Positions 10,196 through 61,832 are shown, counted from the first letter of the stretch. The stretch is DNA of 64,000 bases from Psammoneis japonica (GCA_008632985.1 QPGO01000172.1:1-64000); one strand, 5' to 3'. Program-made: numbers and translations. The notes: generated by a model from the sequence alone, not told the origin.

Positions 10196-10291
10196 TGATT
10201 TTTTTTTTTAAATGGGGGCATGGCTAGATGGAATGATTTGATTGGTTGTTGACAACGGATGGGGTGGGATGGAATGACAAAACAGCGGGAT

Positions 10292-29043: not shown

Positions 29044-29206
29044 CTAATTAATTGACATTTTTTCGGAAAATCTGACGCAATCATTTACAGACGAGGAGGC
29101 TGAGACAACTCTCCAAAATCAGACACAAGAATCAAAATGATGCGGAGACCGAAATCATCTTCTTTTCGCGCCACGGAAAAACACAACAACACAGACTTCT
29201 GTCGCG

Positions 29207-38335: not shown

Positions 38336-38615
38336 CCACCTTTCAAGGGCAGGTGAACCCTGTCGCAACGGAGACTCAGGTCTGCGGTGGTTGAAGGCAC
38401 TCCCGTCCTGGGAAGCACCAGTCAACGCCTCACCGGGGAGCCACCCCTTGGCTCTCGCGGGCCGTCTCAATGTTCAGAGGTGGGGCCACATGAACATCAT
38501 TGCAGAAAAAATTGCCGAGGTGCTGCTGCAGTTGGCAACCTTGGCAGCAGCCCGTGTCATTTGCAGATGAGGGCCACCTCGTCTGCCGCTTGTGCACGGA
38601 CTTTTCCAAAAGTGG
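38336..38615 (-). ncRNA. Putative structured ncRNA/ssDNA module, copy B
   Basis: Close homologue of 32630-32911 with the same boundaries. Confidence 0.45.
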
Positions 38616-40212: not shown

Positions 40213-40495
40213 CCACTTTGGCTGGAAAAGTCCGCGTATAAGCGGCAGACGAGGTTGCCCTCGTCTTTAAATAACACGGGCCACTGCCGAGGTTGCTGAC
40301 TGCAGCAGCGCCTCGGTAATTTTTTTCTGCAATAATATTCATGTGGCCCCACCTCTGAACATTGAGACGGCTGACGAGAGCCAAGGGGTTGCTCCCCGGT
40401 AAGGCGTTGACTGGTACTTCCAAGGACGGGAGTGCCTTCAATCGCCGCAGACCCGAATCTCCGTTGCGATAGGGTTCACCTGCCCTCAAAGGTGG
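40213..40495 (+). ncRNA. Putative structured ncRNA/ssDNA module, copy C
   Basis: Terminal stem CCACTTTG/CAAAGGTGG; GGTACTTCC-AAGGAC-GGGAGTGCC (9 bp, two G-U); TGCCGAGG..CCTCGGTA; AGACGAGG-TTGC-CCTCGTCT. Conserved although the adjacent 40500-40880 segment does not align with copies A/B. Confidence 0.55.
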
Positions 40496-40895
40496 TTTGG
40501 ATTGTTAAAGTTTTGCAGCTGGGTGGCACAGGGAGCAGGTGGCACTGGATCAGTTGTGCAGGAGCATGGGAGTCTACGGTGTTGGAGCAGCTGGTCGTGG
40601 TTCTGTTGCATTGCAAACGTTACTTTTGTCCTAGAGCTCATCTCTGTGGCATTGTTTCTGACTTCAGTCATTAACAGCGTGTTCCATAGGGCACGCAAGA
40701 ACGACGGCTGCTTCAGCTCTTACGACCACTGCTGCAACTCTTGTGACTGCTGCTGTTGTTGCGACTGCTGCAACTCTTGCGAACCCGGCTAAAAACAAAG
40801 GTTGTTGATACTGTTGGAGTGTAGGAATCGGCAGCGTTGAAATAAAATAGTGAATCAAAAACTCATGCATAAAATGTACCTGGCAATGATAACAT

Positions 40896-43800
40896 CTACC
40901 TTCTTGACTGCTGTCTCTTTGGGCAATCCTTAGAATGCGCTGGTCGACCTCTTGGTCGGCACCCCGTCACGCTGTAGCTTTGCTGCAGCTTGTATTGTAG
41001 GAAAGCAGGACAACAGTACGGATCAATGTCTCGCTTCCTTTGATCTCGTATTGGATCATTAAGAGTTGAAAGAGCCGGTTGCACTTGATATGGAACAGAT
41101 GGGAGGGCTGCACTCATGCTCGATGCAAAAGCAAGCTGTTGCGAGAGGGTGCTTCTCATGGCTTGCAACATGTTGAACTGCTCCTCGACTTGAACGTGAG
41201 CTGCATTAAGCAATGGAGTGGCATCCATGCACACAGGTTCAACCGTCACCTCGGGAGCCATCGCAATTTCGACAATGCCGCTTGTAGGTTCAACGGTTGG
41301 CGCCGCTGCAGTTTCCCCATCGTCACGGTTTCCAACTTCTGATCTTGTTGTTCGCTTGTATGGATTTTGCACCGGTTTCGTCCCACAGAGATTGCACATG
41401 CATCGATCTGTCTCGGGGTGTGGAGCAATCGTTTCATTTCTTGCATTCTGCTCCAGCAGGTACTGGGACAAGAAATGCTCGCCGGTGTCCTCCTCGAGTT
41501 CCCTTACATTCGGACATGGCGCTTTCTTCCCCTTTTTTATTGCAAGGTTATTGATTTCAATTAGATCAAGTACATTCCGATGAGTAACCACGCCCCGAAA
41601 GTCATGTGGAATCTTGGCTCGCGCCGTTGCATCCATTTTCTCGATTCGCTCCTTCTCTTCGATTGTTTCATTGTACAAAACTAATCCTTCCAACGTAAGC
41701 AAGTCCATCAATGAATGTCTCATTCCGCAATTTCCACAATGTGCCAGTGAATCGTGTGCCTTCTCCAATTTGGATTCTGGTCCTAGCAGCGTTCGCCACT
41801 TTACTAGTTTTGCTTTCGACCGCAGGGACGGCGCTGCTGGCCAGCACTGCTCCGACTTCGGCACTGGAGTGTCTAATCCCTTAGAGGTTTCTTTCGCATT
41901 CAAAATTGCATCCTTTGTGTCGGTTGTAAACAGTGTTAGTCCACTGTCTGGATCTAGCCGTCCTCCGGCAGCGGGGGCTCCGTCGGAGGCAGTGCACTTG
42001 TATCGAGCAAACCAATCCTCAAGCAAAGTGAGCCTTTTCTCCAGCGGGTGCCTCCAGAGACGAATGTATTCCTGGTAGTGCTTCCACCTTGAAGAGTGGA
42101 TGATATCTTGCATCTCCTCGTCAGAATGCTTTTTGTTGTTTGGAGTGCCATCCTTCAGGGCTTGTATCACAGCTTGGCGGTCGGACCACTCGGCATACGA
42201 TGCGGTCGCCTTAAGATCACTTACAGCTTGCCAATAATCAGCATGCTCTTTTCGGAGCGTTCTTACAATTCGATGCATCCAATGAAAGAGCCCGAGCAGA
42301 CAGATTAGGTTCATTCCGAAAATTGTCTTCCATAGCTGCGACTTATGCGGCCAGGTGTCGCTGTAGTGGATTTTCGGTCGTACGTTTTTTCGCCTGGCAA
42401 ACTGTTCTGCCGCGTGAGCAAAATCTTTTGCTTCCAATGTTGGGGTTAGGCAAGCGGTTCCTACCTGCCCCTTTTCATTGCACATGGTGAACAGGCCAGC
42501 TGCTCCACCTGCTTTCTTTGAGTGGTTTTTGAGAATCTGAAAAGTGTGATCGGATGCGACACTCACGGCGGCTCCAACCATCTGTGTCAATCTCGTGCAC
42601 CTGTCATACGAGGACGTGGCCAGAGCTGTCAATTTTGATTTGCCGCTTTCGTCATAAAGATCGAGAAGTGCATAGCCTGATGGACTGCACCCGCCCATCC
42701 AATCCTCAAAAGACACCCAGTCTTCGGTTTTGTCTATGGCTCGGTCATGGCATTCTTTCTGGAGGTCCTTGAAATGGTCGGCTCGCATTTGGTGCAGCAT
42801 GTGCGAGAACTTGTCCCCGCCTGCGTACGTGACAATAATGGACTCAAGGAGTCTTGTAGTTTCCTTGGTAAGATGCCACTTGTTGGTTGCACTAGCACAC
42901 TTAGGCAACGTTGGACATGCTGACTGTAGGCTTTTTGGCAGCTTGTGCAGTAGTCGACCGTCGTTGCCCTTGCATCGAATTTTGCATTGATTGCATTCGT
43001 ACCACATTGACACCGCCATGTGCGTCTTCCCGCTGATGCAACACATTGGTGTCGCCCCACCGCATCGAGTAAAGTCCATACGGTCATGAATCATTTCACC
43101 GTCGCACTCTCCGTCAATGCAGGGGATGTAGATGTTAGGATGATTCAGCTCCCAACAAACAATGTGCATTGTCATACCTTGCAGCTGATGGCAGCAACAA
43201 TCAGGTGGCAATGTGCAGTCATCCTTGGGAACTTCAAATGACATTGTACCAGGAGGAAAAGTTTCATCCTTAAGCTCCAGCATCTCGTTGAGCTCAACAC
43301 TTTTTGCTGTAGCCACAGGATGCTTGTTGCTGCCTTGCTCGAATCTGGGCTTGACAGAGTCCAACAGACAGCTGATGAGAGCACTTGCTGCAGCCGGGCA
43401 CTTCGTCCTCTCCTCGGAGTTCTCGTGTTTTTTTGCTCTTGCTCGAATCTCTTGTTTCAAAGTCTCAACCGAAAATTTTGTAATGGCGGCCGCCTTGCAA
43501 GCATCATCCGTGCACTCCACGGGGCCTGCAGCACCAGCCACCCCCGAATTCACCGGCTTGCAAACATTGGAAACACCTGGAGGAGGCAATGTGATGCGAG
43601 CTTCAGGTCTCTGTGTTCCAAAATGGTCTCGCATGGTCGAAACTCCCTCAACTGGGGCAGCCGGAATCGTGTTGTTCATTTCGTGCAGCTCTTCATTGCG
43701 TCGCTCTGCATCCATGGCAGCTTTGGTGACGTTCACTTGCGAGCACCTTTTTGAAAATTTGCATGTGGGATCATGGCCATGATGACATGTAGGACCTCTC

Positions 43801-44201
43801 TCACATCTCTTGCATTTCTTCGTTCCGTCGTCTACTCTTGCCACCTTGCGCCCACTAAAATCGCTCTGATGCGTCCGCTTCTGGCGTGTGTGCGCTTGGC
43901 TTTTGCTCGTTTTGATGGAGCCTTTGCGTTTCTGGGATTGAATGCCCATGTTTCTAAAGAAAGGATGCAGCTGCCGCTCTTCGGCCTCTTTTGTTGGAGC
44001 AGATTCTTCTGTTACGTCCGTCATCATCGAAGCACCAGCAGAGATTGCACTTTTCTCTCTCGTGGGTTTTTTTTGTGAGAGAATTTTTCTCATCGCGTGA
44101 GAAGTCTGTGTTGTTGTGATTTTCCGTGGCGCGAAAGGAAGATGACAGTCGGTCTCCGCATCATTCTGATTCTTGTGTCTGCTTTTGGAGAGTTGTCTCA
44201 A
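40896..44201 (-). CDS. Transposase of copy C, uninterrupted 1101-codon frame (first ATG at 44093); DDE, Mutator-like
   Basis: VASDHTF, IHYSDTWP, LGLFHWMHRI, PESKLEKAH, CxxC/H clusters. Keeps several Tyr that are Cys/His in A and B but is itself partly converted, so activity is doubtful. Confidence 0.75.
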   Translation of the reverse strand: MRQLSKSRHKNQNDAETDCHLPFAPRKITTTQTSHAMRKILSQKKPTREKSAISAGASMMTDVTEESAPTKEAEERQLHPFFRNMGIQSQKRKGSIKTSKSQAHTRQKRTHQSDFSGRKVARVDDGTKKCKRCERGPTCHHGHDPTCKFSKRCSQVNVTKAAMDAERRNEELHEMNNTIPAAPVEGVSTMRDHFGTQRPEARITLPPPGVSNVCKPVNSGVAGAAGPVECTDDACKAAAITKFSVETLKQEIRARAKKHENSEERTKCPAAASALISCLLDSVKPRFEQGSNKHPVATAKSVELNEMLELKDETFPPGTMSFEVPKDDCTLPPDCCCHQLQGMTMHIVCWELNHPNIYIPCIDGECDGEMIHDRMDFTRCGGATPMCCISGKTHMAVSMWYECNQCKIRCKGNDGRLLHKLPKSLQSACPTLPKCASATNKWHLTKETTRLLESIIVTYAGGDKFSHMLHQMRADHFKDLQKECHDRAIDKTEDWVSFEDWMGGCSPSGYALLDLYDESGKSKLTALATSSYDRCTRLTQMVGAAVSVASDHTFQILKNHSKKAGGAAGLFTMCNEKGQVGTACLTPTLEAKDFAHAAEQFARRKNVRPKIHYSDTWPHKSQLWKTIFGMNLICLLGLFHWMHRIVRTLRKEHADYWQAVSDLKATASYAEWSDRQAVIQALKDGTPNNKKHSDEEMQDIIHSSRWKHYQEYIRLWRHPLEKRLTLLEDWFARYKCTASDGAPAAGGRLDPDSGLTLFTTDTKDAILNAKETSKGLDTPVPKSEQCWPAAPSLRSKAKLVKWRTLLGPESKLEKAHDSLAHCGNCGMRHSLMDLLTLEGLVLYNETIEEKERIEKMDATARAKIPHDFRGVVTHRNVLDLIEINNLAIKKGKKAPCPNVRELEEDTGEHFLSQYLLEQNARNETIAPHPETDRCMCNLCGTKPVQNPYKRTTRSEVGNRDDGETAAAPTVEPTSGIVEIAMAPEVTVEPVCMDATPLLNAAHVQVEEQFNMLQAMRSTLSQQLAFASSMSAALPSVPYQVQPALSTLNDPIRDQRKRDIDPYCCPAFLQYKLQQSYSVTGCRPRGRPAHSKDCPKRQQSRR

Positions 44202-44518
44202 CCTCCTCGTCCCTAAGTGATTGCGTCAGATTTTCCAAAAAAGTGTTAATTAATTAGTCGGAAAGTCCTCGACTTTCCGAGGGTCTCCCCAAGTAGAAAT
44301 CCCAAATGCTGAATTCTGATTGGCTCTCGTAGCGCCATTCATGGTGAGGCAATTAATCAGTGTCGTGCTTTCCGTTGCCACGCACATGACAGTTATTTAT
44401 ATTTATTCTGAGGCACTGTTGTGAGACACATTTTTTGTGATGTACGGTACCGTATATCATCATCGTCCGCGCAACCACACACCACGAGAATGCGCAATGC
44501 GCAACACTTTACTGATAC

Positions 44519-44871: not shown

Positions 44872-46619
44872 ATACGGCCTGATACTGTACCCCTTGCTTT
44901 ACTCTCGCCAGGGGGTTGCCGGAGATGACCATGTCTGTATTTTCTGAGATAGCCTACATCGATCTTGCAAGTGGGGCTCGTGGAAGTTCCATGCCGATAC
45001 CAGGAACTCTAGAGCGAAGTTCACGGTTCTTCAAAAACAATACGGTACTACCGTGCCCTCTCCACCGAATCAAGAAAACAGCGCTTTTCCAATCAATGAA
45101 TTCATCAACGCGAGAAGAAATCTCCCGAAAAGTCGACGAATGCGTGAACGAGGTATGTTGCAGACTGGGTTGCGCCGTTTACAAAAAAATATATGGGTCT
45201 CACAATTCGTTCTTGTTGTGCGGCATGCCGTAGAATGCATTTTCTAGTGTAGAGAAAGTTGGAGAAGATTTAGATATGTCATAACGAATGAATGAGAACG
45301 GAAGAAGGTGAGCAACAGAAGTGCAAGTCTAAGCGTTTTTACACTCTTTGAAGTGGATGTGTGTTTGACGGATAGAGAAGCGCGACTCTTGGTGGGATGT
45401 GTATTATTGGGGGATACTTGCCTTGAGGACGTACACGAGTTTCGTGTCGGCAACTTGTCCTTCGTGGGCATTGTAGCATAACTTATTGTTGACAGAGGAA
45501 AGCAGCAAAGAGAGCCAAAGAGTATTGCTTTAGCAGGAAAAGAATGGGATATGAGTGAATTAGACATGGAACATATAGAGGTTGAAGATACTGCCGGTAG
45601 TCAGAAGGCAAGAGAAGTACCTCCCCAAGATGAGGACAACGACACTGGATCGTCCGAGCACAAAACTCCCAAGAGGAAAAATGCAATTCGAAACTGGGCG
45701 GGTCTGTGCACTCGCCTCACCTTACTACTCGAGAGCTCTGCTCCTTCTTCTTATTGTATTCCACTACCATGTCCGCCTCTACCGGTATTACGAGCAGTGG
45801 TTTCTGTCTCCGTGGACGGTGGACGCCTTGATTGCTCCCATGGAGGCAACGCACATATCGCAACAAAACTTGTCGTGTGAATGGAGGGCCAACCAGCTTG
45901 AAAACCTCAATAAAAAATTTCAATCGCTATGAAGGATAGATTCACGCTCTCTACCAAGACTTGGGCAAATTAATCACGGGTCGAACCGAGGTCCCGTGTC
46001 CGGCCTGCTTTCAATGCGAGGCAAACTGTATGTAAGGGAGTTGGGGAATTTGAAAGTGTTGATGTCGTTGCCGTTGAATTTGAATTGCTGCTGTGGAACT
46101 CATTTCTATTTCTGTTGTTATAATCAGAAGTTAGTGCGTGACTCCGGATTGCTTGTTGGTGCACGAAAAGCGTGCCGACGTCTTGCGCAACGAACTCGTC
46201 AAGGCGGTGGAACGGTACGTTTATGACTTAAGGAGCCGTACTACTGGCAAATACGTATCTCAACTCACTCTCTCTTTTGCTTGATAGTCGAATTTGGTGC
46301 AGACCCGCAATAGTTGGAATTCGGACGGATTGGCAGTGGTTCACACGCCCAACTACTCGTGTCTCTCATGAAGGATGGCGGCAAGATTTAATGTGGTGGT
46401 CCAAAATGTGGCAACGCCGCGTCCCGCTTTGTACCATTCTTACAATCCTTGTGGTCAAGAGCAAGCCAGAAGCAACCGAGTTTATTCAAGTCATGCGGTG
46501 CGTGTTGAGTGTCCGTAGTGCTTGTGCATTTTGTGTTATTTTTCAGTCCGATCCGACGGCAAGCTTGACATTAACCCCCCTCGCTCATTCAGGCAGAAAC
46601 CCCTTGACGATACCTAATC

Positions 46620-47110
46620 ACTAAAAAGTATTTCCAGACAAGCTTAATTTTACACTTCGATTCGAGGTATGTAGGGGAGAGAGTCGTATGAAATACGGGT
46701 GACGGCTGGATGCCATGCACTGCGGACTTTCGGTGCGAGTCCAAAGATGCAAACATGCCGCCCGCATACAAGTGCATAATGACTAACAAGAGAGATTCTC
46801 GAGGGTCTTGATCTCCCTGGGTCGCAGCTCCAGAAGACTTAGATTGCTGTATCAAGAAGCATCCTCTATTAGTAGCTTTCGGTTCAAGAAGGGTGACTTG
46901 GTTACTGTCGACGCTCACAAGGCAGTCGTTGTGCCAAAGCGATACGTACAGCTTATCAAGCAAGCATGGATCACGGCAACCATCACTGCCGTGGACATCA
47001 CGGGTCGACATGATCACTATTACGTATACGAATGCACAGTTGCTGAAGAGAAAAGGCGATTCACGTGGTATATTTGGACGACACTGACGAGCATGTGGCA
47101 CGAAAAGACG
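46620..47110 (+). pseudogene. Coding-like fragment with two 'RF..G(D/E).V' SH3/Tudor-like starts, interrupted by stops
   Basis: ..RYVGERVV*NTGDGWMPCT.. and SSFRFKKGDLVTV..WITATITAVD..YYVYEC. Confidence 0.3.
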
Positions 47111-47709
47111 CAAATGCTCGGGAGAGGCTCATTGATGCCATCAACGAAAATTAGAACATTGGTTGTTACATGTATCTGACTTCTGACATGGATGGTTCCA
47201 TACAGGATTTGATCATTTTCAGGCGCAGACCCGCAATCGTTGGAATTGGGACGTCTTGTCACTGCTTCACACGCCCATCGACTCGTGTTTGCTCATGAGG
47301 TATGGCGGACATATTTTATGTGGTGTACCCCCCACCCTTGTGTTTAATCCACCCCGCATGTCAAAATTGTTGCAAGAAGAATATTTGGACCCATTCTTCC
47401 GATTGTTGTAGTGAAAATCAAGCAAGAAACAATCGAGTTTGTTCAAGGCATCGAGCGTCAATAGCGCTGGTGCGTTTCGTATCATTTGTCAGAGTGATCA
47501 TACGTGTTCCTATTCTATTTATTTTCCCGGTATTCCATTGGTCGTTCAAGCATTTACCAAATGCCAAGACGTCTTTGAGGAATTGACAAATACATGTCCG
47601 AGTGCAGCATCGACACGAAACGACGCCTTTGGTATTCAATCAACGTCACCATTTTTGCCCATGGGCTGCTTGCGAACTAGTGGACACGGATACTACCGTG
47701 GCAAGTACT

Positions 47710-47882
47710 TGCACTAAGCTAGCGTAACGTTAATCAGTTGATGAGAAAAAAGTGAGCTCTATGGTTAGACTACTCATTGATCTTCTATAGAATGGATCTG
47801 ACTCATCGCTTGCATCATCAGATGAGCGACGTCAGAAGATATCTGCAAGTGTGAATTATAGATCTTAGGGCGGCGTACTGCA
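47710..47882 (-). repeat. 3' LTR of the Gypsy element
   Basis: TGCACTAAGC...CGTACTGCA on + strand; matches 52517-52689. Confidence 0.97.
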
Positions 47883-47908
47883 TTCGCTTCCCCAAGGGTA
47901 TAGTAAGG

Positions 47909-50900
47909 TTAATGATGTGTTTTGTAAGGATGTAAGAGACGAATGTTGACTCGTTCTTTGATCCTACGACCAGCTTGGATCCGCACGGTACCATTGGAGT
48001 AGACTTCGATGATATCGTACGGGCCGTCGTAATGCCGTTCATGCTTGCGTCCGGCACGTCGTTTGTATAGTACACGGTCGCCTACTCGGTATTGATGGGC
48101 GATTCGTTTTTGGTTTTCGCGCTTGTTGTTGAGATCGATCAGACGTTGCTTTCGCCGCCGGATCTGGTCCCAATTAGCACTAAATTTTCTATCAAAAATC
48201 ATGTCACGTCCAAAGACCAATTCTGCTGGAGTGGCTTGGAGTGTAGTGTGGTAGGTGCTTCTCATTGCATGGGCTACATTAGCCAAATAGCCAGACCAAG
48301 GATCGATCGGATCTAGTGTCTGCATTTGCAAGTCAAATGTGCGGAGCATGTTATGTAGAGTAAGGTGAACGCGCTCAATGACGCTATTCGCCTGTGGGTT
48401 TCAGCCAGAGGCTGGTTTTGCTTTGATTCCATAAGACTCTAAAAGTTCTTGGAATTCTTGGCCTGCAAATTCACCACCCTGATCATGAGTGATCTGGCGA
48501 GGACGGGGACAGCGACAGAACCATTCTCGGCCGACTGTTAATGCTGCCGTCTCGCTGCTAGCGTCGGGCATTTCTTTGATTTCAAACCACGACGTTGCAG
48601 GGTCTGTCATGGTGAGGGCTTTTAATTCGTGAATTTTGCCGTCAACGGTCTGCACTTTGTAAGGACCGATGAGATCTGCGCACAATTTGCGCCACGGATG
48701 ATGTTCTGCTGCTTTGGCAGGAAGATGGCCGCATTTCTTTGTGTTTTTCTTGAGCCGTTGACACTCGTCACAATGTGTCACACGGTCTCGTACGTCTTCG
48801 CGCAAGTTTTTCCATGTAAAGTTTCTTCGCATTGTTTCTTCTGTCCGATCCGTTCCAGGATGACAGAGATTGACATGATGCCAATCCACGATTGGTTTTC
48901 TGAGCGGTCGCGGTGTCGGCATTTGATTGCCGTTGAAAAATGTGACGTTGTTTTCACCCATTTTTCTGACCGTGCAGTTGCCATCCGTTTCTAGCTTCTC
49001 ACACATTTTTGTGTCTCTCCATTGACATTTTGCGATCGTCTTGTGGCTGATGGGCAAGCCATCAGTGGGAGTTGTCTCCTCTTTTTTCTCCAGGCGCCTG
49101 CGCTTGCGGGCTGACTGGGATCGCGGCAGAGCCTCATCTGCAAGGGCTTTGGCTTTTTCAGCTAACTTTCTCTTCTCTCGAGTTCGGGTTTGGACAAAGA
49201 GCTGCTCGGATTGCGCAGTTCGCTCCGGCTGCTTGGATTTTTGGTGCGCGCTGCCGTCAAGGCCTTTGACTGTCTCAGTTGGTTTCTTCTTGTCGAGCCG
49301 GCTTAGTGCATCGGCCGCGACATTTTCCTCTCCCTTGACAAACGTCAAGGTGGGTCCGAACTCTTCCACAAACAGGCGCCAGCGATGCACACGCGCTGAC
49401 GATGCCATTTCATAAGTGAGATTGATGTGATCTGTAAAAATTTCAATTTCGTGTCCTGACAAGATGTTTCTGCATTCTCGCAGGCACTCCACGACAGAGA
49501 GCAGCTCTCTTTCAGCAGTGGCACAGTTTCTTTGGGCTTCATTGAGCTTTCTGCTGCAACAAGCAATTGGCTTGCCCTCTTGGGATGTGATGGCGCCGAG
49601 TTGAAAATCACTCGCGTCGACATGGATTGTAAATTTTTTGGAGAAGTCTGGGTGCGCGAGCATCACGTCTCGCTTCAGTGCCTCTTTTGCTGCTTGAAAG
49701 GCTCTCTCATGTGTTGGGAGCCAGTTCAGCTTTTTCTTTTTCTTGCTGGACATCAGCTCTGACAGTGGTGCGAGCAGGTGCGATCGTGATCGCCACATGT
49801 CTCGGTAAAAATTGACCATGCCGATGAATCGGCGAAGTTGTTTTTGTGTTTCTGGTCGCTTGATCTCATCTGTTGCTTTTACTTTCTCTCTCACAGGTTT
49901 TGTGCCTTCCCTGGTGAGCCAGAAACCGAGGCATTCAATCTCGGCAGCAAAGAATTTTGATTTTGCGGCGTTGACTTTGAGCCCGGCTTGTTGCAGCCGG
50001 TCCAAGACTTGTTGGAGTTGGTCAAGGTGCTCTTCAAAGGAGCCCTGGCCTGTCAGAAGGAGGTCGTCTAGGTGAGTGCGAACGAAATCCTCCAGGCCTT
50101 GCATCAGCTGCATCATTTTTAGCTGAAAAATGTCTGACGCCGGTGCTGCTCCCATTGGCAGGCGTTGACAGCCACATTTTCCCCATGGGGTGATGACAGT
50201 GCACATCTCTTGTGCTTGAGGCGTGAGCCCAATGGTGTGGCAACCCACATTTGGGTCTAAAGAAGCAGCGTGCTTGAACCCTTGTAGGTTTTGCAGTGGC
50301 TCTTGTGTGGTCGGAGGCGGACATGGTTCGCGCCTCAGTCTTGCACTCAATTTTCTGAAATCAGAAACGAATCGGACTGTTTTGTTTTTCTCAGGAACAA
50401 TGAAAGCAGGGTGTGCATGTCTGCTGCTGTCATTTCTCTTGAGAACACCGACAGACTCCAATCTTTGGAGTTCTTTGAGCAGGGTGTCCTTGTGAATTTG
50501 AGGAACACTGAATGCTCGTTTTGCGTGAAACGGCATGTCTTCACCCGGTTTCACGTGCAAGTCGGCTGGTTCGCAGTCGAATTCGCCTGGAGTGCCGTCG
50601 AAGAGTGTCTCATGGCTTTTTGACACTTTCAACAGTTTCTTCTTTTGTTTTCTGTCGAGTGCAGTGCACTCGTCGACTGTCTTGTCGAGATCTGCTTTTT
50701 CACATTTAGCATCCAAGATTTTGGTCGCGCGCTCAGCGGTGTCTTTTAAAATTTCGCTCGCGTGGATGTCATTTTCGTCTGATTGCATCTGCCAGAGTGC
50801 TTCTTCGGCTTCTGAACCAGGCTCAACTTCATCATGGCTTTGCATGGGAGCCCATGAATCGCCCCACTGAATCGTTTTGGACGAATGTGATAAATCGATC

Positions 50901-52486
50901 TTGAGTTCTTCGAGACAGTCGCTTCCAAGAATCAAGCCACAAGTCTTGTCCTCGGTCTCGTCGACATGAAAAGACCAGCGGAAGGTCTTTGATGTTGACA
51001 GTTCTGGCAAAGCAATGTCACACGCGACTCTATGACGACATGTGAACTCGCCAGTTTTTGTGTTGAAACTGGCAGATTTGACTTTTTGCCAGAATCTCCT
51101 TGGCACTTGAGATTTGTGGATCAGGGAAGCAGAGCTCCCAGAATCTAACAATGTTGGAGCACTTGACCCAGTGACAGAGTCGTCTTCTGGCAGTGCAGTT
51201 GCTGCTGATGCTGCCATCTTGCGCTTTTTCTTTGCAATTTTGGTGCCAATCGGCCTGATCGGACATAAAAAATTTCTCGTGACAGCGGCATTTCTACGCT
51301 CCGCTTTCGCGTGATCTATTTTGTCCTGTGAGCAATTGAGCCGGTGGCCATCAGATTGTTCACTGCTAGATTCACATTTTCTATTTTGTTTCTCGGAACG
51401 GCGGATCTTGCGTGCTCGTCCATCATCGTAGTCCGAGGATTCATCGCTCGAGGAGCAGTGTGATCTCTCTGATTCGTCGTCAGAGATGTGACAGTTGCGC
51501 TTGCGGTGACGGTTGTTCCGATCCTTGTCATGGCGCTCATTTTTGTCTCGGTCATCACGTTTGAAGGACACTTTTTTATGACGTGGATGTCCTGGGTGGT
51601 TGCACTCTTGGTCATTGTGTCCGGACCTTTTGCAAAAGTCGCAGCACTTGGGTTTCCGGGGAATCTTGCATCCGGACGTTCCCTTGTAAGACGCCTTGCG
51701 GTCGTTCTTCTTACTGTCACGGTCGTCGCTTCCATGACGGCGATCGTTGGAATGCTTGTTGCGTTTGTCCTTGCATTTCTCCGCCCTTTCCATGCGGTGG
51801 AATCGCTCCTTCAAGTCCTTTTTGGTGAGTTCTCAAGGGTTCATGCCGTTCGCCGTGAGTTTGTCATGCCAGGCTTGCGGCGCGCTCTTGATGAGCATGT
51901 TGACACAATCGTCGTCTGTCAAAGTGGGCTGCGTGTCTAGTGCCTCACCTTCGGTGTCGACGTCCAGCGGAAACTGCTGAAGGTCAGTTGTCATGCCGTC
52001 CATCGCGGAGACGAACTGTTTGTACGTCGCTCCGGACGGTTTCTTGACGGTCTTCAGGTGCTCGATCTGGTCACATCGAGGCGTGTCGCTCTCGAAGCAA
52101 CATGACTTGAACGTCTCGAGGACAGCTTGGAACATGTCCTCTGTCTCCAGCGCTGGATCTTCAAATTCCTGACGCGCTCGCTCCCAATCGGTCTTCGCTG
52201 CACCGATGAGGCAAGCAGAAAAGACGCCGAACTTGGACGGGCCTGCTTCACAGGGCTTGCGGTCAAAGATCTCCTGCACCTGTCTTAAGAAATCACATGA
52301 GAAACGGGGGTTGTCATCGCCACACTCACCGCTGAAAGATGTCACCTTCTTTTCGTGCGTTCCACTGTGGATGTCGGTCGGGACATCTCGAACTTCAAAC
52401 TTCGTAGCAGGGCCCTTGAAGCGTTTCGGAGTTTCCCACTGTCCGGTGAGTTCGAAGGACGGCACCGTAGTGTCGTTGGAGGTCAT
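47909..52486 (-). pseudogene. Single-frame gag-pol (Gag-CCHC, PR, RT, RNase H, IN) with two in-frame TGA stops
   Basis: ORFs 51833..52486, 48401..51814 and 47909..48349 share one frame. CDFCKRSGHNDQEC, LLDSGSS, RTHLDD (YxDD), DASDFQLGA, ADALSRL, HHCC, ADLIGP, HDQGGEF, NPQANSVIERVH. Domain order PR-RT-RH-IN. Confidence 0.95.
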
Positions 52487-52516
52487 TGTGAAAAGACGCG
52501 TGAAGTGAATTCACTG

Positions 52517-52689
52517 TGCACTGAGCTAGCATAACGTTGATCAGTTGATGAGAAAAAAGTGAGCTCTATGGTTAGACTGCTCATTGATCTTCTATAGAAT
52601 GGATCTGACTCATCGCTTGCATCATCAGATGAGCGACGTCAGAAGACATCTGCAAGTGTGAATTATAGATCTTAGGGCGGCGTACTGCA
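52517..52689 (-). repeat. 5' LTR of the Gypsy element
   Basis: TGCACTGAGC...CGTACTGCA on + strand; matches 47710-47882. Confidence 0.97.
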
Positions 52690-53834
52690 GTGCTCATTTG
52701 ATGCCTTTTCGCATCCACACGCGAGTGTGTATGGACCATGTGGCAAGGGTTTGGAATTCGGAATGCTACGGCAAGGGATCTATTAAGACTACATGATCGT
52801 ACGATGGCGTCTCGGAGGATGCATTTGTGCTCATGTTTGGTTTGCTCGTTCTTGTTCAAACAGCCAGCTACCATCCATTCATGCCACGAAAGGCCAAGCT
52901 CGTGCTGGTTACGTCATAAAATGCCGCCCATTCTAGCTATTCCTTTTACGTTTGACTATGACAGCGACGGGTACGACGATTTTTTTCGACGGACGAGATG
53001 GAATTCTTCAAAAACAATGTGATTGTCATTACTCTAGCAATATGACATGAGAGTTTCTTCTAGTCATACCATAAAGTGCATTTTTATTGTAATAGTCTAG
53101 ATAGGATAAACATCGAGCGACGAGTTCCGTGTAGAGGCGGAACCTCACAGATTATCCAGTCCACCACCGTCGGGCATGGTGAATGCTGCGTCTCTGCCTT
53201 GATTAAAAATACTGTTTCGACTAGTATCACTCTCAACGACGCGTTCATCTACTTCGTTTTGCATAAAGCTACATCACGGATTCGTTGTAACGTGGTGACC
53301 GTCATCATTATAGAAAACGGCATAGCCAACACCCAAACCAAGCACCACGCTAATTAAAAGCTCAACGGAAAAGGTTGAAGGAAGCAATAGTCATGAAGTG
53401 GATTCCCTCGTCTCTCCAAAATTATTGTGGCAATACAGTGTGTTGATCAGTTGAGAATAGGGCCTATGTAGCAAGACGACATGGAACTCGGTTAGCTAGA
53501 GGGAAGAATGCTTCGTCTTCGAGTTGAGAGGGATACAGCCAGTGACCTTTAAGAAAAGAATAGACCAGTGTAGGAAAAACTGATCAGCCTATAAAGCAAC
53601 CATAGAAAAAAAGTCCCAAATATAGTCAGTATCTGAAGCGTCGCTCGGAGATTCATTCATTTTTTGCAGCCCTCGCCCTATTGTGAGTGAATCAATTGTC
53701 GTCCAAGAAGTGTGATCTTCTCCTGCTCTACATCGAGCTTGACTTTCATTCGGAAGGTGCCGGAACAAGTTGATTGAAGCTGCTTTGCAATCGGAGAAAA
53801 GACTGGACTGGCTGAAGCCGTATTATACTGCAGC

Positions 53835-54990
53835 TTACTCATCAGCAGTAGTCAATTTCCTTGTAGTTCCCGCATCAAAGGCAAACAGCTGAGCAACATT
53901 ACCTTGAACGACGGCAATATCACCATCAACAAATGTCAACATGGAGGGAATAATGAATAAGAGAGCCGGAAGCCCCGAGCTTGAAACACCCGGAACAAAC
54001 TCGCACGCCAAACAACCCGTGGCAAACCCCAGCAAAGAGGCTACAAAGCAATTGCTATTTTTCTGCTCTTGATCAAATCGGAGACAAAATGTTGACAATG
54101 GACAAAGGGAAAACGGCATCTCCTAGCCCCAACAAGTCGGTGACAATGCCACGAAACCGCACCACAAGCAATCCCGGCTGCCACAACGTTGCTTCTCCCG
54201 TACTGGCAAGAGCCACTGCGCCCATGGTGGAGGACGAAGCGCTGCACACGGCTTGTCCTTGAGCAGTCGCTAGACTTGTAGTACTGCCCAAATCAATCAG
54301 TTGTATGCCGACCGATACCACATCATACACAAGGCCAAGCCCGTCAGTTAGTGCCACGAGAATGGGCCCCATCCGTGGCAATGGCCAAACAGACGCATAG
54401 TATATTTTGAATGGGCCAAAAAAACGCAGATGGACCCACAAAGGCAAGAGCCGATAGTAGCAACGCAATAAGAGTTGTCGTGATTTCCTTTTGTTGGAGC
54501 AATGGCAAGCGTGCTAGTTCGGCGCGGGAAAAGAGAGCTCGACCAGCCCGTTGGAAAGCGACATGAAACTGGGAATCAACTCCTTTACGCTCTCCAGCAA
54601 GGCAGTAATCGAAGGAGAAGAGGACACCAAATAATCGTCTTGTTGCTGTTGCAACACGACAATGAAGACCGAGGTTGCCAAACTCGCCACGACAAGGAGA
54701 GGTAGTCCCACGGCTTGCGTCGAGTCCTTCACACGGTCGAGCGCAGTAGCCATTTCCTGAAATCGCGTATCGTGTATCGTCTTGTTTGTCCTATTTTTTC
54801 AACGTCCGACAGCACTTGTCGCGTCAAATCCACGAGCCGTGTTCCCAGAGCTGCATCATTTGTCGCCCCTCGTGTGCTGCCAGTGTTCACCACGATGAGT
54901 GCCAGCGCATAAATAATGTAGAGCCGTTTATTGCAAATCACGAGCGGTGCAAGGAATCGGAATTGTAACAGGACCAATCCAAGTGACAAG
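53835..54990 (-). pseudogene. Signal peptide peptidase-like (GxGD aspartyl protease, A22B), frameshifted
   Basis: GLVYDVVSV (YD), LLGLGDAVFP (GLGD), GLPALLFIIP (PAL) in the right order, split across frames near 54110. Pseudogene or assembly indels. Confidence 0.8.
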
Positions 54991-55149
54991 GCACGATGCT
55001 TGGAGCAACGATACTATGGAGGACCACATCGGACATCGGTGACGGTTTGCTGCTCGGTGGCGCAACAGACAGACTGCCGATCTGGGATCGAGACGGTCGA
55101 CCGGGTCGTCTCTTTGTTGGTGTCCCGCCCCACGAAAAAATAGCCAGCG

Positions 55150-57338
55150 CGCGTGACTTTGACAGTTCCAGCCACTGCCTTCAGACTTGTTGCCTTGAGC
55201 GTGACTTGCAGAAGTGTGGGAACTTTCAAGGTGGTGTTGGTGAGGGCGACGATTCAGTGATGATGGCAAGTGACACCCCAGAGGAGAGGCAATGCTGCAG
55301 CTTCCTCTGAACACCACTGAAAAAGTCATCTCAAAGTTCCCACACCTGATGTTTTTTACAAGCAACCCAAAACCTGTGTTTTTGCCAGGAGATTTCTTGG
55401 AGACAGAGCTCTCTCTTTGTGGGAAACAGCTCAGCTTGAGAGGGACCTTGAATTGGGATGGTGGAGTCCACCTCACTCAATGCATCAGAGGAGAGGCAAG
55501 CCAGATCTTTTGTGATGGAGTTGGGGATGGTTTCCCTGTCTGGGAGAGGCGGGTGTTTCGTGAGCAAGACCACCAGGTTTTTCAGAGAGAGCACAGCTCC
55601 CAGATGGTCATGGCCACAGCGCACAAGGTCTCAGACTTGGAGGTTAGAGAGGAGAGCAAAAAGCCATGGAAGCAAGAGCAAAGCAAGCCAGGAGAGGAAA
55701 AGCAAGGCAAGCAAAAGAAGAGAAAGATGGCGACCTTGGGCAGCGGTGCAGTCAAGAGCAAACAAGTGGCCAGAGCAGTCAATCTTGAGTTCAGGGAGAA
55801 GGGCAAGAAAGGTGGAAGATCACCAATGTACAGGGGGGTTGCAGCCAGCTCCTCTCTCAGGATGAAGATCGGCTTCTCTGCACCTTTTGTGAGAAAAAAG
55901 AACACAAGTTCAAGACAGAATGGCAGCTGGGCTGCAGGCTGGCATGCATTGATGGCAAATTGGATGAGCAATCTCTTCAAAAATTGTTTGAGAAAGAGGA
56001 GCACCAAGAAGCAGTTTGAGACCTTCAAGGGCAAATTGAGGAGGCTGCCAAACATGTGCAGCACATGATTTGAGGCTGAGGTTTTCAAGTTTTCTGCAAA
56101 CAACAACTCTTTTCTTTGGGTCTGCGGGAAATCACCATTTTTGCCACCTGCGTGTCAAAATTGATGGAATCGCGCCTGCCAGCACAAAATCTGTCTGGCA
56201 AGACAAATTTGTTGCCGACACCACCTCGCAGAAAAGACATTTTCAGAAACAACTTTTGATGCAACAAAACTGTGCGGGACAAAGAAAACTGTGTAAAGAC
56301 CCTGATGTGCACAATTGAAAATGTCCCAAAATTTGTGTTGTGTGGGAATGTGCCAGTCTTCTACATGCAAAAGAACCCGCATGTGCATTTTTCAAAATGT
56401 GCGACACAACTTTCAAAGTGCACATCCGGGTCACATTTTTTTGTGCAGATTTTGTGCTGGAAGTCTTGCAGGAATTCTAAAAACACCCGGGTGTGCATTT
56501 TTGAAACTGTGGCACAACTTTGATTTGTGTCAAAAGTTGTGCCAAAAATGCGCGAGCTCGTCACGCAGGAAAAGTGCGTGCGGCTGCACTGTTGGCATTG
56601 CAAATGGTTGAAACTCACAGAGATTCTCTGTTTTTTTGCTTTGAAGCACGATTTCCCGCAGAGCCTGTGTCCAATTTAGAGCTGCTTTGTCTGCACATTG
56701 TTGGCTTTTGCCATGCTTTTTGAAGCATTGTCTGCTGCTTGATGCAAGACGTTTCATCATTTGCCGGCACATGTCTGCGTGGAATTCACAGTGCACAACA
56801 CACGCGCAAATTTGTCCATGCTGCAGCTGGCATGTTGCCATGCAGAAATGTGTGCAAGGGTCACAAGTGCGCTTGAGTGCACTTGACAAGGAGCGCTTTT
56901 TTGGCTTTCCCCCTGAGCTGAGATGTCGGCAGCTCTTTGTGTGCCCAGACTTTGTTCATCAGATGCTCAGCCACAAACCTGTCCTCTCTTGTGTTGCGGC
57001 TGTTTGGACTCTCCATTGAGAAAGTCCACAGCAGCCCAGGCCATCCTGAGTGCTGACAAAACAGCTCTTGGCAAAACTTTTCTTAATTGCGCCAAATGCA
57101 CAAATTTCCAAATGATGGGAATCGAACCCACTCGGAGCACCTGGCCCCAATTGACTTTTTCCAAATCCGTTTTTTGCCAAATCGAAGGGCAAGTGCACAC
57201 TTTGCACGCATTTTCGGGTGGACACTCACCTTTTGATTTTCGAAACAATCAAAATTGAAGGAGTTAATTGCACTGAACTGCACAGAAAATTGGCCTCTCT
57301 CGTGATGAAAAGCAGATCACCTGGAGCTGGAACAGGCC
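55150..57338. mobile_element. TpA-erased transposon remnant ending in the family 2 TIR; subterminal-type repeats at ~56290-56560
   Basis: Ends ...CACCTGGAGCTGGAACAGGCC at 57338; 57087-57338 is homologous to MITE 24384-24643; repeated GTGCATTTTT, CACAACTTT and GTGCACA motifs. Left boundary is approximate. Confidence 0.6.
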
Positions 57339-57674
57339 AGCTGGCTTGGCTCTGTGTCAGCCCCTTGACAAAGATGCAGAGATTGTGTTGTTGTGCAGTG
57401 AGATGCTTTCCCTCAGTGTCAGCACAGCACCCTGCTTGCAGAGTTGCAAAATGGCATGCAAGCCTCCTCAAGCTCCTTTTGCCAGCGCTGCAGGGCAACT
57501 TGTTGTTGGCATGAAAAAGCTCTGAAGCAAGGTTCTTGGGTCGAAGAGTTGCTGGGCATGCCAAGCAAGCATGAGACCTCCTGTGAGATGTGCCCACAAT
57601 GAGACTTTCAACACAGCAATGTTGTGCACATGGGGTTTGAAGCAAGAGACACACATTGGCACACAAACATGTGT

Positions 57675-57862
57675 GCAGCATCAAGGGACAGACCATTGTG
57701 AGTGGTGGTGCAGGCGCTTGTGCGGTGAGCGATCGTGCTCTTGACTGACGCGATGCATCAAGGGACAGACCATTGTGTTCGGTGGTGCAGTCAGGCGCTT
57801 GTGCAGTGAGCGATTGTGCTCTTGATGCACGCATGGATGCAACGCATCAAGGGACAGACCAA
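57675..57862. repeat. Short tandem repeat, ~77-90-bp period
   Basis: GCATCAAGGGACAGACCA near 57678, 57755 and 57845, with CAGGCGCTTGTGC.GTGAGCGAT.GTGCTCTTGA in two units. Confidence 0.8.
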
Positions 57863-57934
57863 GAGCATGTTGGAGATGACATGATGCGATGTGGATGACA
57901 GAGATCGAGAAACAAAACTCAACACGGGACAACG

Positions 57935-58890
57935 ATGACAAAGCTCCGGATTGAAATCATCACAGATTCAAAGATCACAGTCGACCACAGGATGCCTTGG
58001 CGTGTTGTTTGTGTCGCTTGTCGATTGATGCTGCATTGCCGATGAAGAAATTGAAAAGGAACTTTTTTCCGTGGTGCGTTGAGTGTTGTTGAGCTTCTCA
58101 GAAAAAGCTTTCGATTGATGCAGCAAAGCATGCTTTGCTCTGACTCATGCTTCTAATTCTGCTTTTGCCTGTTTTCAATCGCACTTCCAATCCACTTGTG
58201 TCGGCTCGTGCACCATGGCAGGTGTCGAGGTCCCGGCTCTCACTTTTCGGGGAGCATTTCCGCCAAATTTGTTGATTTGCTTTCTCAGCCTGCCCACCTC
58301 TGGCCAATGCATTTCGTTGACACTTGGAATGACTGCATGACAAGTCCCATTCCAAAAAATCAAAAAGAAGTCATGGTCGTTTCGGACTCAAGCTGGACAA
58401 CAAACACGGCCACTGGCTGTCCAGACTGTGGATGCTTTTTCCGAGGTGCCGTTCGTTTTGACATTCCGGATTTTCTGCACCATTTGAAGAATTTCACCTT
58501 GGTGATTCCAAAGTGTGGAGAAGTTAAATTCCGTCGTAATTGGCAAAATCTACAGTCCAAAGCTGAATTTATGAGAAATGCGGGCCCACAAGTCTTTGCA
58601 GTTGCTGCAATTTCAAGACGGGGAGATGGGAGACTCAAACACAAGCAAGCCGCAGCATAAAGAGCAGCACGCTGCTGCTACAAGATGGTGCAGCTTGACG
58701 ACCAACAGTGCCAGTGATGATGTCATGTGCAATGCATTGATGCTCGATGCTTGCTGTGGATCCCCGCTGGCCACAGAGATTCTTCTTGCCGGCCACAACG
58801 TCACTTTGGCATGCCGAGAGGCCACAGCGGTGCTCTTCAGTGAGGGAGGTTCGGTCGTTTGCATTCCCACACGCTCGGGTGAGGAGATTG
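57935..58890 (+). repeat. TpA-erased duplicate of 61083-62028
   Basis: Aligns from ATGACAAAGCTCCGGATTGA to CGGGTGAGGAGATTG with indels; many substitutions are TA->TG/CA. Confidence 0.92.
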
Positions 58891-58989: not shown

Positions 58990-59570
58990 CTTTCACAGTT
59001 GTGCGGTCCGACATGGTCAATGCCTTTGTCCTGCCCAACAATCGTGTGTTTGTCATGACGGGCCTTTTCCAATGTGTTCGAGACGAAGATGAGTTGGCCG
59101 CTGTGTTGGGACATGAATTGGCCCATGGAATTGCACGCCATGCTGGTGAAAAAATGAGCGGCTCCATTGTTGTCAATGTCGCTGCTCGGTTGTTGTTCTC
59201 AGTGGATCCCAGAGGGGTGTTGTTGTCCACACTTCTCCCGGCAGCTCAGTTGCTGCAGGTGCTTCCTAATTCTAGACAAGCTGAAACCGAGGCTGATCAG
59301 ATTGGTGTGTTCTTGACTGCTCAGGCTTGCTGTGATCCACGTGCTGTCAAACGCATTTTTGCGCAAGTTGTTTTCTTTGCGCACATTGGCATGCCATCTT
59401 GTTCATCATTCCTCTGCTGTCGGCATGTCCAGAGCAATGAAAGAGGGGGCAAAGGGAGCGCAGCCTCCAGAATTCATTTCGACTCACCCTTCTCATGACC
59501 GACGCACAGCTGGTTTTGACGACTGGATGCCAGGGGTTTTGGGGGTCTTTGAGAGTGATGCCAGTCACCG
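58990..59570 (+). pseudogene. Peptidase M48 (Oma1-like) gene fragment with a relic intron, TpA-erased
   Basis: VNAFVLPNNRVFVMTGL, ELAAVLGHELAH (HExxH), SRQAETEADQIG, ACCDPR (usually ACYDPR), EFISTHPS. Intron 59363-59432 reads GCAAGT...CAG and joins in frame. Confidence 0.88.
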
Positions 59571-61832
59571 TTGTCGTCAGGTTTGTGAAGGCACGTGAGC
59601 AGCTTGTTTGATTGCGGCGTAGAATCAAGGCACCACGACTTAACAGTGGTGAGAGGAGCTTGAATGCAATGGCACCAGGAGTTGAGAGTGGCGCTCTAGA
59701 GAGTTTGCAGGCTGAAAGAATGAAAGGGACATCGCCAACGACAACGCTGGCGCAGCAGGAGCATGTCGTGGGGGACGCAACAGTGCAGGGGCGGCGCTCG
59801 CAAGCGGGCTTGTGGCATGTTGTGCAAGTGATGGCTCTGCCGGCATGATGAAGGAACCGAAATTCGAAACTGGCAATGTCATGCCCAACAATCGAAGTGC
59901 TGCATCCTTTGTCGTTTGCCATCTTTTGCTGCTCTTCTGTTCAAGTTGTTGAACATTGTGGCAAGCAGGCAATCAGAGCCGAAATGCTCCAGCACACATC
60001 GGCGACGGGGCATGCCGTGACGAACAACCCGACGTGGACTCTGGGCAAGCAAGCACACGACGAAATCGCAAGCACTGCGACCGTCATCGCAGTCCATTTG
60101 ACGTGCACACGGAATGAATTGCGTGCAAATGAAGATTGCTGCAGTGTGCTTTTAGAGTCTTTCTGCTTCCATTGCAAAGGTTCAAAGCGTGTTTCAAAAA
60201 ATGTGAAACACACCAACATCAAAAGCAGCTGTTGAAATCGGTTGCGCAGGGTGACGTTGCCTCAAAAGCCCCGTCAAAAGATGGTGCTCAAGCTTTTGCG
60301 CATCTTCAGAGTGAAACGTCACTCAAAAAAGTAAAAGGGGGGACGTGCTTTGGAGACAACAAGAAAACTTGCGAGTCGACCGCGTTCTAAATCAATGCTC
60401 CCTGCGAGTGAAGACTTGCCGCATCATGTCGCTGATGCGACGGAACCCCAAACCTGCATTCCGTCAATGGCATGATCTGCTTGGCGAGCTTTTGCTGCTT
60501 CGTAGATGAACGCTGCTGTCTGTTTCAACAGCCGTGACCTGACGGGTCAAGCGAACAGGCAACTTCCTGCGCTCAAAGACACGAGAGTGACATGGACTCA
60601 AGGCCGGAGAGACGCACTCGATTTGCCCCGACCTCTGGACTCAACTGGCAACACCTGCGCCACCCAAAGACAACACGCCATCAAGCAAAATGAGTTGTGG
60701 AATGCCAAACAAGAGCGAGCTCTCAATCCAGAGGAAGGGCGAGCCATCCTCGGAGATTGCGGCTTCCGGCTTGGCAAACAACAAGCACATCGTGCGAGAC
60801 GATGAGTTGTGATCCGAACTCTTTCCGAGAGATTTTGTTTGTGTCGTGACCGTTGCTGCATTTCTCAATCACTGTCATTTTTGTGTGTCTCTGTAGAATT
60901 ACTACTTCTACCATGATTTCGTATGTAGAACATCCGTGAAACTTGCTACTTTCAAAATTATTACCAAATCCTACGTACACTTTACGGAACGCAAAAAATT
61001 GTCGCCAAGACTGACGTGTTCGTTGTCGAGGTCCGAGCTCGAGAATTAGCAGGTGGCACAACACATCATGCCACAGCACGGCATGACAAAGCTCCGGATT
61101 GAGATCATCACAGATCACAGTTATTGTTTGTGTCGATTGATGTTGTATTCCCAACGAAGAAAGTGAAAAAGAAACCTTTTCCGTAGTAGTACTGTACGTT
61201 GAGTGTTGTTGATTGTCGAGCTTAATTCACAGAAGAAGCATTTGATTGCAGCAAAGTATGCGAATGCTTTGCTCTGACGCATGCTTCTACTTCTACTTTT
61301 ACTTGTTTTTAATCATACCTCCAATCCATCCACTCGTATCGGTTCGTGTACGATCCCGGATATCGAGGTCCCGGTATTCACTTTTCGGGGATAATGTTCG
61401 CAAAATTTATCGTTTTGCTTTCTCAACCTACCTCTGGCCAAGTACGTTTCGTCGACACTTGGAATGACTGCATAACAGGTCTTATTCCAAAAAACAAACA
61501 GAACTCGCGGTTGTTTCGGACTCAAGCTGGACTATTATGGAAATCCTACAACAAACACGGCTACTGGCTGTCTAGACCGTGGATACTTTTTCCATGCATC
61601 AATGGAGCCATTCAATTTTTACGGGAGGTGCCGTTCGTTTTGATATTCCGGATTTTCTGCACTAAAGAATTTCACCTCGGTGATTCCAAAGTATGGGGAA
61701 GTTACCGTCGTAAATGGCGAAATCCAATTGGGAGGACTCGAAACTGTACTGTCCAAAGCTGAATTGATGAGAAACAGCCCACAAGTCTTGGTATTTACTG
61801 TAGTGTCATCTGCTGCTACAAGATAGTACAGC

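Follow-up and report, generated by a model that had tools for sequence, protein, structure and literature searches.

Both long terminal repeats (LTRs) of a new retrotransposon copy are made from one template during reverse transcription and are identical at the start, so differences between them arose after integration. Which side of an element has changed, in which direction and by what process is the question raised by a Ty3/gypsy LTR retrotransposon of the diatom Psammoneis japonica, found on the minus strand of a 64,000-bp stretch (GCA_008632985.1, QPGO01000172.1:1-64000; hereafter the window). The element is 4,980 bp long and has two direct LTRs and a 5-bp target site duplication (TSD) with one mismatch. 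An earlier note on this DNA had described two 173-bp LTRs with five mismatches and a TSD reading GTACT on the left and GTGCT on the right, the TG/CA allele always being on the right, and had read five of the six changes as losses of the dinucleotide TpA that took place in the chromosome. We consider it likely that the inserted element has undergone in-chromosome, region-restricted hypermutation of TpA to TpG or CpA. The evidence is comparative and comes from the LTR pair, the TSD, the empty site and conserved codons.

Differences between the LTRs and at the target site

Direct comparison of the repeats reproduces the described mismatches exactly. The LTR pair is identical at 168 of 173 positions and all five mismatches are transitions (Table 1). 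A direct count also bears out that five of the six LTR and TSD differences are of the TA versus TG/CA type (four A>G and one T>C), and the right copy has TG/CA at all six. Bases within a TpA make up 30 of the 178 bases of the left LTR and TSD, and uniform mutation would place at least five of six changes there with a probability of 7e-4, a value that drops further once CpG is treated as hypermutable. The restriction of all six changes to one side has p = 0.03 (two-sided). As an empirical control we used 78 related loci from metagenomes, 33 of which have terminal direct repeats; this control is crude, given that some of the 33 repeat pairs may be assembly overlaps and not LTRs of one insertion. 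The 186 mismatches in these pairs comprise 26 of the TA versus TG/CA type, 39 CG versus TG/CA, 51 other transitions and 70 transversions. With the control rate of 26/186, binomial arithmetic gives a probability of approximately 3e-4 for at least five TA-type differences in six.

The direction of the change at the TSD is given by an empty site. Contigs from three sequencing runs (X1, X2 and X3) of one sample in one study were aligned to positions 46500-54000 at 85% likeness; no contig of X3 aligned to this region. Both filled junctions are reproduced without difference, the left one by contig records 1 and 9 and the right one by record 6. A further X1 contig of 3,308 bases at a depth of 59, with a counterpart in X2 (depth 28), aligns to 47324-47446 and 47529-47707 and then continues at 52693-52903, skipping 4,985 bases, which corresponds to the element plus one TSD copy. 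This precise empty site proves the insertion and its 5-bp duplication. At the joint from 47707 to 52693 the letters CT alone fit both sides, and the letter before the joint is the A of 47707, not the G of 52692. Hence, the empty site reads GTACT with the TA allele, and it was the right TSD copy that went from TA to TG, a post-insertion change in host DNA. The earlier note had proposed the empty-site allele as a test of direction, and the result favours the direction it had chosen. Its placement of the changes in the chromosome holds for the TSD base through the empty site, and for the LTR differences it follows from how LTRs are made.

The flanks of the empty-site contig differ from the window at 16 of 123, 22 of 179 and 20 of 211 letters (approximately 11%), with several short gaps, and its depth of 59 compares with 51-61 for the filled-junction contigs. 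The combination of diverged flanks and equal depth identifies it as a diverged homologous chromosome or haplotype without the insertion. The genome seems to hold two strongly diverged homologous chromosomes or subgenomes, with the element on one only.

TpA loss in the element and its timing

The LTRs begin with TG and end with CA, and the internal part holds a single minus-strand frame running from 52510 to 47909 whose only interruptions are two TGA codons (51835-51833 and 48403-48401). Pfam matches on the residues of the pol frame are RVP (220-314), RVT_1 (480-638), RNase H (704-825, as RT_RNaseH_2/RT_RNaseH), Integrase_H2C2 (974-1029) and rve (1044-1139). Protease, reverse transcriptase, RNase H and integrase thus follow the Ty3/gypsy order, and with the frame on the minus strand the LTR on the right is 5' and that on the left 3'. 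In a full-length search the nearest protein to pol is a reverse transcriptase of the diatom Fistulifera solaris (57% identity), and most other relatives among the matches listed have 42-47% identity. A 271-residue piece of pol retrieved 122 relatives from the protein collection, the best at 63% identity over 77% of the query, and none of them is a copy of the same family. Within the window there are no further copies of the LTR or the element, as blastn of the element against the window returned the self match and two LTR-LTR matches only. No tRNA-complementary primer binding site was recognised by eye; no dedicated tRNA search was made.

TpA is lost from most of the interior. In bins of 200 bp, 10-14 TpA occur across the left flank, the left LTR and the initial ~560 bp of the interior and 0-5 between 48400 and 52400, and from the right LTR outwards the count returns to 8-14. 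There are 37 TpA in 48400-52399 (~9 per kb) versus ~58 per kb in 47800-48399, and approximately 84% of the TpA in the tract is gone. The boundaries of the tract fall at ~48440-48540 and ~52470-52527, and the right end abuts the right LTR. For the internal part the observed/expected ratio of TpA is 0.25, falling to 0.11-0.13 at its centre; the flanks have 0.65 and the left LTR 0.96, and the 78 related metagenome loci range from 0.55 to 1.18 (median 0.75). None of these 78 is TpA-depleted; the search patterns that found them contain Tyr and favour intact copies, so the set serves as a control only. The CpG ratio of the interior is still approximately 1.0, and the process is a loss of TpA on both strands that is far faster than CpG decay. 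The left tract boundary lies ~560 bp inside the 3' end of the element, near the in-frame TGA at 48401-48403. That codon is most simply a CpG change from CGA to TGA.

We aligned the translated element with 60 relatives and defined a conserved column as one with at least 80% agreement among at least 40 relatives, which gave 408 columns. The element departs from its relatives at 86 of these. A single TpA>TpG change accounts for 21 departures and a single TpA>CpA change for 13, and the reverse (CpA or TpG to TpA) occurs in none; two are CpG-type, five are other transitions, 19 are single transversions, 23 need two or more changes and three are ambiguous. Among the unambiguous replacements at conserved columns that need one transition, TA-type changes thus make up 34 of 41, and all 34 are located in 50941-48511. 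At the 22 conserved Tyr columns the element has 11 Cys (TGY), four His (CAY), three Phe and four Tyr, and the Tyr of the YxDD motif is now His. Both strands are affected, the 21 and 13 changes being TA>TG and TA>CA on the sense strand; as for a bias between strands, these codon counts and the raw TG/CA counts disagree in direction and we make no claim. Judged against the relatives, the codon comparison shows both the direction and the strand symmetry of TA to TG/CA change in pol. The integrase end at 47909-48400 has four departures from conserved residues, none of them TA-type or reverse-type, and keeps the conserved Tyr at residue 1474; the codon of residue 1360 (48433-48431) falls outside that part.

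Contigs of other copies of the family bear on the timing. In X1, 206 contigs aligned, 118 of them less than 95% alike, and loose ends lead into other flanks at 52689; the divergent contigs and the loose ends together show that the family has other copies. Differences were taken from the best-supported 40 of 1,060 rows of the contig table. Each contig is placed where it fits best, so TG-bearing LTR contigs go to the right LTR and TA-bearing ones to the left, and the table therefore cannot yield a family consensus. At 52531, four contigs of other copies carry G (depth 193 of 218), so the right LTR changed from CG to CA there, an ordinary CpG transition. Two sites in pol differ in both letters of a dinucleotide. 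At 49411-49412 the window has CA and nearly all other copies TG, in a codon that is Lys in 39 of the 60 relatives (Glu in the window, a Lys codon in the other copies); at 49912-49913 the window has TG and nearly all other copies CA, in a codon that is Arg in 50 of the 60 (Arg in the window, Gly in the other copies). The simplest history for both is an ancestral TpA that was hit independently, in opposite ways, in different copies, which would place these hits after the separation of the copies.

Contig depth is lower at 47755-48507, and a joint from 47840 to 48616 shows another copy leaving the window there. Depth and joint hint at an absence of the spared 3' piece from other copies; since depth does not measure copy number, we draw no claim from this.

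In the sequence of events that we favour, a Ty3/gypsy element would have inserted at GTACT on one of two diverged homologous diatom chromosomes, and a region-restricted process would have converted TpA to TpG or CpA (A:T to G:C, on either strand) in the resident element. The affected tract would comprise ~4 kb of gag-pol and extend into the adjoining 5' LTR, in which four of 14 TpA changed, up to the first host TpA in the right TSD. The process would have spared the 3' LTR together with the ~560 bp of interior next to it, which would put every difference on the right. We infer that the left (3') LTR is unchanged since insertion and that the right (5') LTR is the mutated copy. Ordinary CpG decay would account for the CG to CA change and for one or both of the in-frame TGA codons. 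The LTR and TSD differences cannot predate insertion, and most of the internal TpA loss would also have happened after it. Chemically, the changes would probably arise from an enzyme that deaminates adenine preceded by T in DNA.

Several observations weigh against this reading. The earlier note had the changes reaching into flanking host bases, and this stands for one base, 3 bp past the LTR. The run data all come from the one sample and study and are probably the assembly's own. The direction from TA to TG/CA, which holds at the TSD, at the CpG site and in pol, is polarised only indirectly and without an outgroup at the four LTR TpA sites. Positions 52523 and 52539 sit 8 bp either side of 52531, and the same four contigs that carry G at 52531 extend at least 47 letters from it and cover both sites, where any difference would have been equally well supported, yet neither site has a difference row among the best 40 of 1,060. 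Other copies probably carry TG at both positions like the right LTR, which could reflect recurrent hits, gene conversion or ancestral TG; recurrent hits at one TpA are expected when each TpA has just two possible products. Rows in which the window has TG/CA and nearly all other copies TA are likewise absent from the best 40. Much of the internal TpA loss may thus be common to other copies or have run in parallel in them, and some of it could date from before the insertion.

Known hypermutation systems and alternative explanations

A signature of this type has been described in the chlorarachniophyte Bigelowiella natans (Mettrop et al., bioRxiv 10.64898/2026.01.13.699255). According to the accessible part of that preprint, mutation-accumulation lines acquired 231 de novo mutations in integrated giant-virus and virophage regions; all but one were A>G or T>C, those all at TpA, and the rate was ~6e-7 per site per generation, roughly 1000 times background. 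The same part further describes 124 TpA-poor clusters, an ADAT2-like candidate and an enrichment of reverse transcriptase and DDE domains among TpA-poor coding sequences. It contains no LTR or TSD analysis, with 0 occurrences of 'LTR', 'retrotranspos' or 'target site'. As far as this text goes, the Psammoneis locus resembles B. natans in having TpA>TpG and TpA>CpA changes on both strands, sharply delimited chromosomal regions, TpA depletion with a gain of CpA and TpG, and changes after integration, here from one host base and four indirectly polarised LTR sites. It differs from the preprint's account in the host, a diatom and thus a stramenopile, and in the target, an LTR retrotransposon and other repeats in place of viral DNA. 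The depletion is also far deeper, with 0-4 TpA per kb in old tracts compared with a Rho of 0.45 in the nucleocytoplasmic large DNA virus region of B. natans, and our evidence is comparative whereas theirs consists of de novo mutations. The two are likely the same kind of process, found here in another supergroup lineage and on a retrotransposon, and far nearer to saturation. Full-text literature searches gave no report of the TpA signature in diatoms, the B. natans preprint being the sole match; its supplementary Tables S2-S11, which may list retrotransposon targets, were outside this coverage. The accessible text of a Phaeodactylum mutation-accumulation paper (PMC6604790) has 0 occurrences of 'TpA' or 'transpos'.

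Among the other explanations, ectopic gene conversion from already hypermutated copies would have given the right LTR its four TG/CA alleles, leaving only the TSD and CpG changes to arise in place. The 206 contigs and the loose ends at 52689 attest to possible donors, and the right-LTR contigs seem to share G at 52523 and 52539. However, TG contigs are sorted to the right LTR by best-fit placement itself, the contigs differ at 52531, 8 bp from each of the two sites, so that the conversion tract would be patchy, and the TSD base is left unexplained. We regard this history as unlikely.

A sequencing artefact, in which the platform would misread base modifications at the TpA of silenced DNA, is less probable again. 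It gains from runs whose library type is unrecorded and which probably are the data behind the assembly. Against it, word-based contigs of up to 315 kb at a depth of 50-60 reproduce both junctions, an argument for read accuracy; one and the same site has TG in some copies and CA in others; and the tract boundaries lie inside single reading frames. In addition, the accessible part of the preprint gives Illumina sequencing of mutation-accumulation lines as the source of the B. natans mutation calls.

In Neurospora crassa and further fungi, repeat-induced point mutation (RIP) converts CpA to TpA, which thereby becomes enriched; RIP is premeiotic and depends on duplication, and to our knowledge it is known only from fungi. 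The process at this locus resembles RIP as a chromosomal, dinucleotide-specific transition hypermutation that inactivates transposons, can spill into neighbours and spoils the LTR clock, but here TpA is destroyed, the opposite direction and base. We also weighed a RIP-like process proper, in which the element would have inserted with TG/CA and the left LTR and left TSD would later have mutated from CA/TG to TA. The pattern of six differences is symmetric and equally non-random this way (30 of 178 candidate bases), the contigs of other copies on the right LTR have no row at 52523 or 52539 among the best 40 of 1,060, and the TpA ratio of the left LTR is rather high. This history is nevertheless very hard to credit. 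The empty-site allele puts the TSD change on the right, from TA to TG; RIP-type changes explain none of the 86 departures in pol compared with 34 in the opposite direction; and repeats across the window lose TpA and do not gain it, in a host that is a diatom. Nor are there RIP-like marks at the left end of the element, where the 163 codons beside the left LTR are open, with no TAA or TAG and an ordinary TpA density.

Editing before integration, either adenosine-to-inosine on the RNA of the element or deamination of its complementary DNA (cDNA) during reverse transcription, would leave the chromosome uninvolved. Edited LTR retrotransposons are reportedly known in vertebrates from work by Knisbacher and Levanon. 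As in editing by ADAR on RNA or by APOBEC on cDNA, the changes here are a clustered, single transition type in an LTR element; part of the internal TpA loss may indeed predate insertion, and ADAR-type enzymes favour a 5' U (cited in the accessible part of bioRxiv 10.64898/2026.01.13.699255). Such edits are made before integration and on one strand, and would leave the LTRs alike and the TSD untouched. Here both strands are hit, the LTRs, which start identical, differ on one side and so after integration, and the changed TSD base is host DNA. A tandem array and a repeat resembling DNA transposons also lie in TpA-poor tracts. We consider this account just as hard to credit as the RIP-like one. 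Chance or ordinary neutral decay of an old element can appeal to there being just six differences, but at the probabilities given above, and with interior CpG near expectation where TpA is at 0.25, we attach next to no weight to it.

If in-chromosome TpA hypermutation is the correct reading, the TpA to TpG/CpA hypermutation of one rhizarian alga also occurs in diatoms, which are major primary producers of the ocean, and targets retrotransposons as well as other repeats there, to the point of clearing entire tracts of TpA. RIP and APOBEC-type defences would then seem to have a widespread counterpart directed at adenine, and such tracts and their targets could be found from sequence alone. LTR dating, repeat-landscape 'ages', codon-based gene prediction and transposon annotation would be biased in such genomes, gene prediction because TAA and TAG disappear and false long open frames result. 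The warning in the earlier note that LTR divergence would mislead as a clock is well founded. All five differences amount to 2.9% divergence and the single non-TpA difference to 0.6%, and counting five instead of one would inflate the age of the element about five-fold. More tentatively, and on balance doubtfully, the process could be a diatom defence system shared with chlorarachniophytes that detects new or repeated DNA by homology or small RNAs and deaminates the adenine of TpA until the target is almost TpA-free. Such a system would perhaps be old within the group of stramenopiles, alveolates and rhizarians (SAR) and would be an A-to-G counterpart of fungal RIP; the left tract boundary, ~560 bp inside the element where the other-copy contig departs, could then mark the limit of sequence common to other copies.

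TpA-poor zones and genes across the window

TpA depletion extends well beyond the element (Table 1). Across the window 63 of 128 bins of 500 bp have at most four TpA and 39 have at least 15. In the zones 1-3000, 3501-8000, 20001-29000 and 55001-58500, TpA numbers 0-4 per kb, and TG and CA reach 1.6-2.1 times the expected level; the TpA observed/expected ratio of such zones is 0.02-0.05. It is near 0.6 in the host-like stretches at 11-20 kb, 44-48 kb and 61-64 kb. The oldest-looking TpA-poor zones are also depleted of CpG (0.05-0.13 at 25-28 kb). The 121 TpA that survive in poor bins are enriched for CTAA, TTAA and GTAA, with ATAC and ATAT almost missing, compared with the 870 in rich bins, which suggests a wider sequence context for the process.

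Table 1 Features of the element and of the window, with positions counted from the first letter of the window.
Feature	Position	Strand	Remarks
Left TSD copy, GTACT	47705-47709		same letters as empty site (only CT fits both sides of joint)
3' LTR (left in window)	47710-47882	minus	173 bp, 14 TpA; TA or CG allele at all five differing sites
LTR mismatch, left/right	47716/52523		A/G; CTAAG/CTGAG
LTR mismatch, left/right	47724/52531		G/A; GCGTA/GCATA (CG vs CA)
LTR mismatch, left/right	47732/52539		A/G; TTAAT/TTGAT
LTR mismatch, left/right	47772/52579		A/G; CTACT/CTGCT
LTR mismatch, left/right	47840/52647		T/C; GATAT/GACAT
Candidate polypurine tract, GGGGAAGCGAA (minus-strand letters)	47883-47893	minus	adjoins 3' LTR; by position and composition only
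Integrase, last 163 codons	47909-48400	minus	open frame; ordinary TpA, 10-13 per 200 bp
In-frame TGA	48401-48403	minus	conserved Arg/Lys position; relatives' motif R-NPQAN
pol frame: protease, reverse transcriptase, RNase H, integrase zinc and core	48404-51832	minus	Pfam
TpA-poor tract	48450-52500		from TpA counts
In-frame TGA between gag and pol	51833-51835	minus	nearest relative has Asn and reads through
gag-like frame	51836-52486	minus	ATG at 52486-52484; no Pfam family matched
5' LTR (right in window)	52517-52689	minus	10 TpA; TG/CA at 52523, 52539, 52579, 52647; CA for CG at 52531
Right TSD copy, GTGCT	52690-52694		G at 52692 derived from A; letters confirmed by run contig (record 6), empty site A
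TpA-poor zones	1-3000, 3501-8000, 8501-9500, 10001-11000, 20001-24000		3-13 TpA each
TpA-poor zones	24501-29000, 34001-36500, 37501-39000, 55001-58500, 59001-60500		3-13 TpA each
~5-kb unit, three copies	28960-33717, 34327-39402, 39400-44345	two direct, one inverted	79-85% alike
APS kinase-ATP sulfurylase fusion gene	13725-15695	minus	83-86% to Mayamaea, Ditylum, Attheya, Fragilaria and Thalassiosira proteins; best match 90%

The ~5-kb unit is perhaps a DNA transposon, since a high-scoring lead in a protein atlas points to DUF6729 and Mutator-like transposases. Its inverted copy has an open frame of 1,109 codons (40899-44225, minus strand) that matches no Pfam family, and keeps most of its TpA, 136 in this copy versus 63 and 43 in the two degraded ones. 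When changes in the three copies are polarised by majority, which errs where two copies share a change, 'A>G after T' is the class with the highest rate in the degraded copies (25 of 140 and 52 of 140; five of 140 in the open copy), followed by CpG transitions. At 25 sites the three copies have all of TA, TG and CA, and at 15 sites CG, TG and CA. A tandem array at 24000-27400, with 12-16 copies of a ~187-bp unit that are 60-90% alike, lies entirely within a zone that has 0-2 TpA per kb and is nearly devoid of CpG.

Since TAA and TAG vanish with TpA, TGA is the sole stop codon in the TpA-poor zones and long meaningless open frames arise on both strands, examples being 20916-22895 and 139-999. 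Pfam searches of 19 long open frames from these zones returned nothing useful. An open frame of 523 codons at 19278-20846 (minus strand) has a weak leucine-rich-repeat match, straddles a TpA-poor border, averages 8 TpA per kb and may represent a host gene into which the process has extended. On the minus strand at 12364-15695 the APS kinase-ATP sulfurylase gene, whose protein matches mark the host as a diatom, is followed by an inorganic pyrophosphatase-like frame (PF00719 in its full-length relatives), and TpA is ordinary there at 30-32 per kb.

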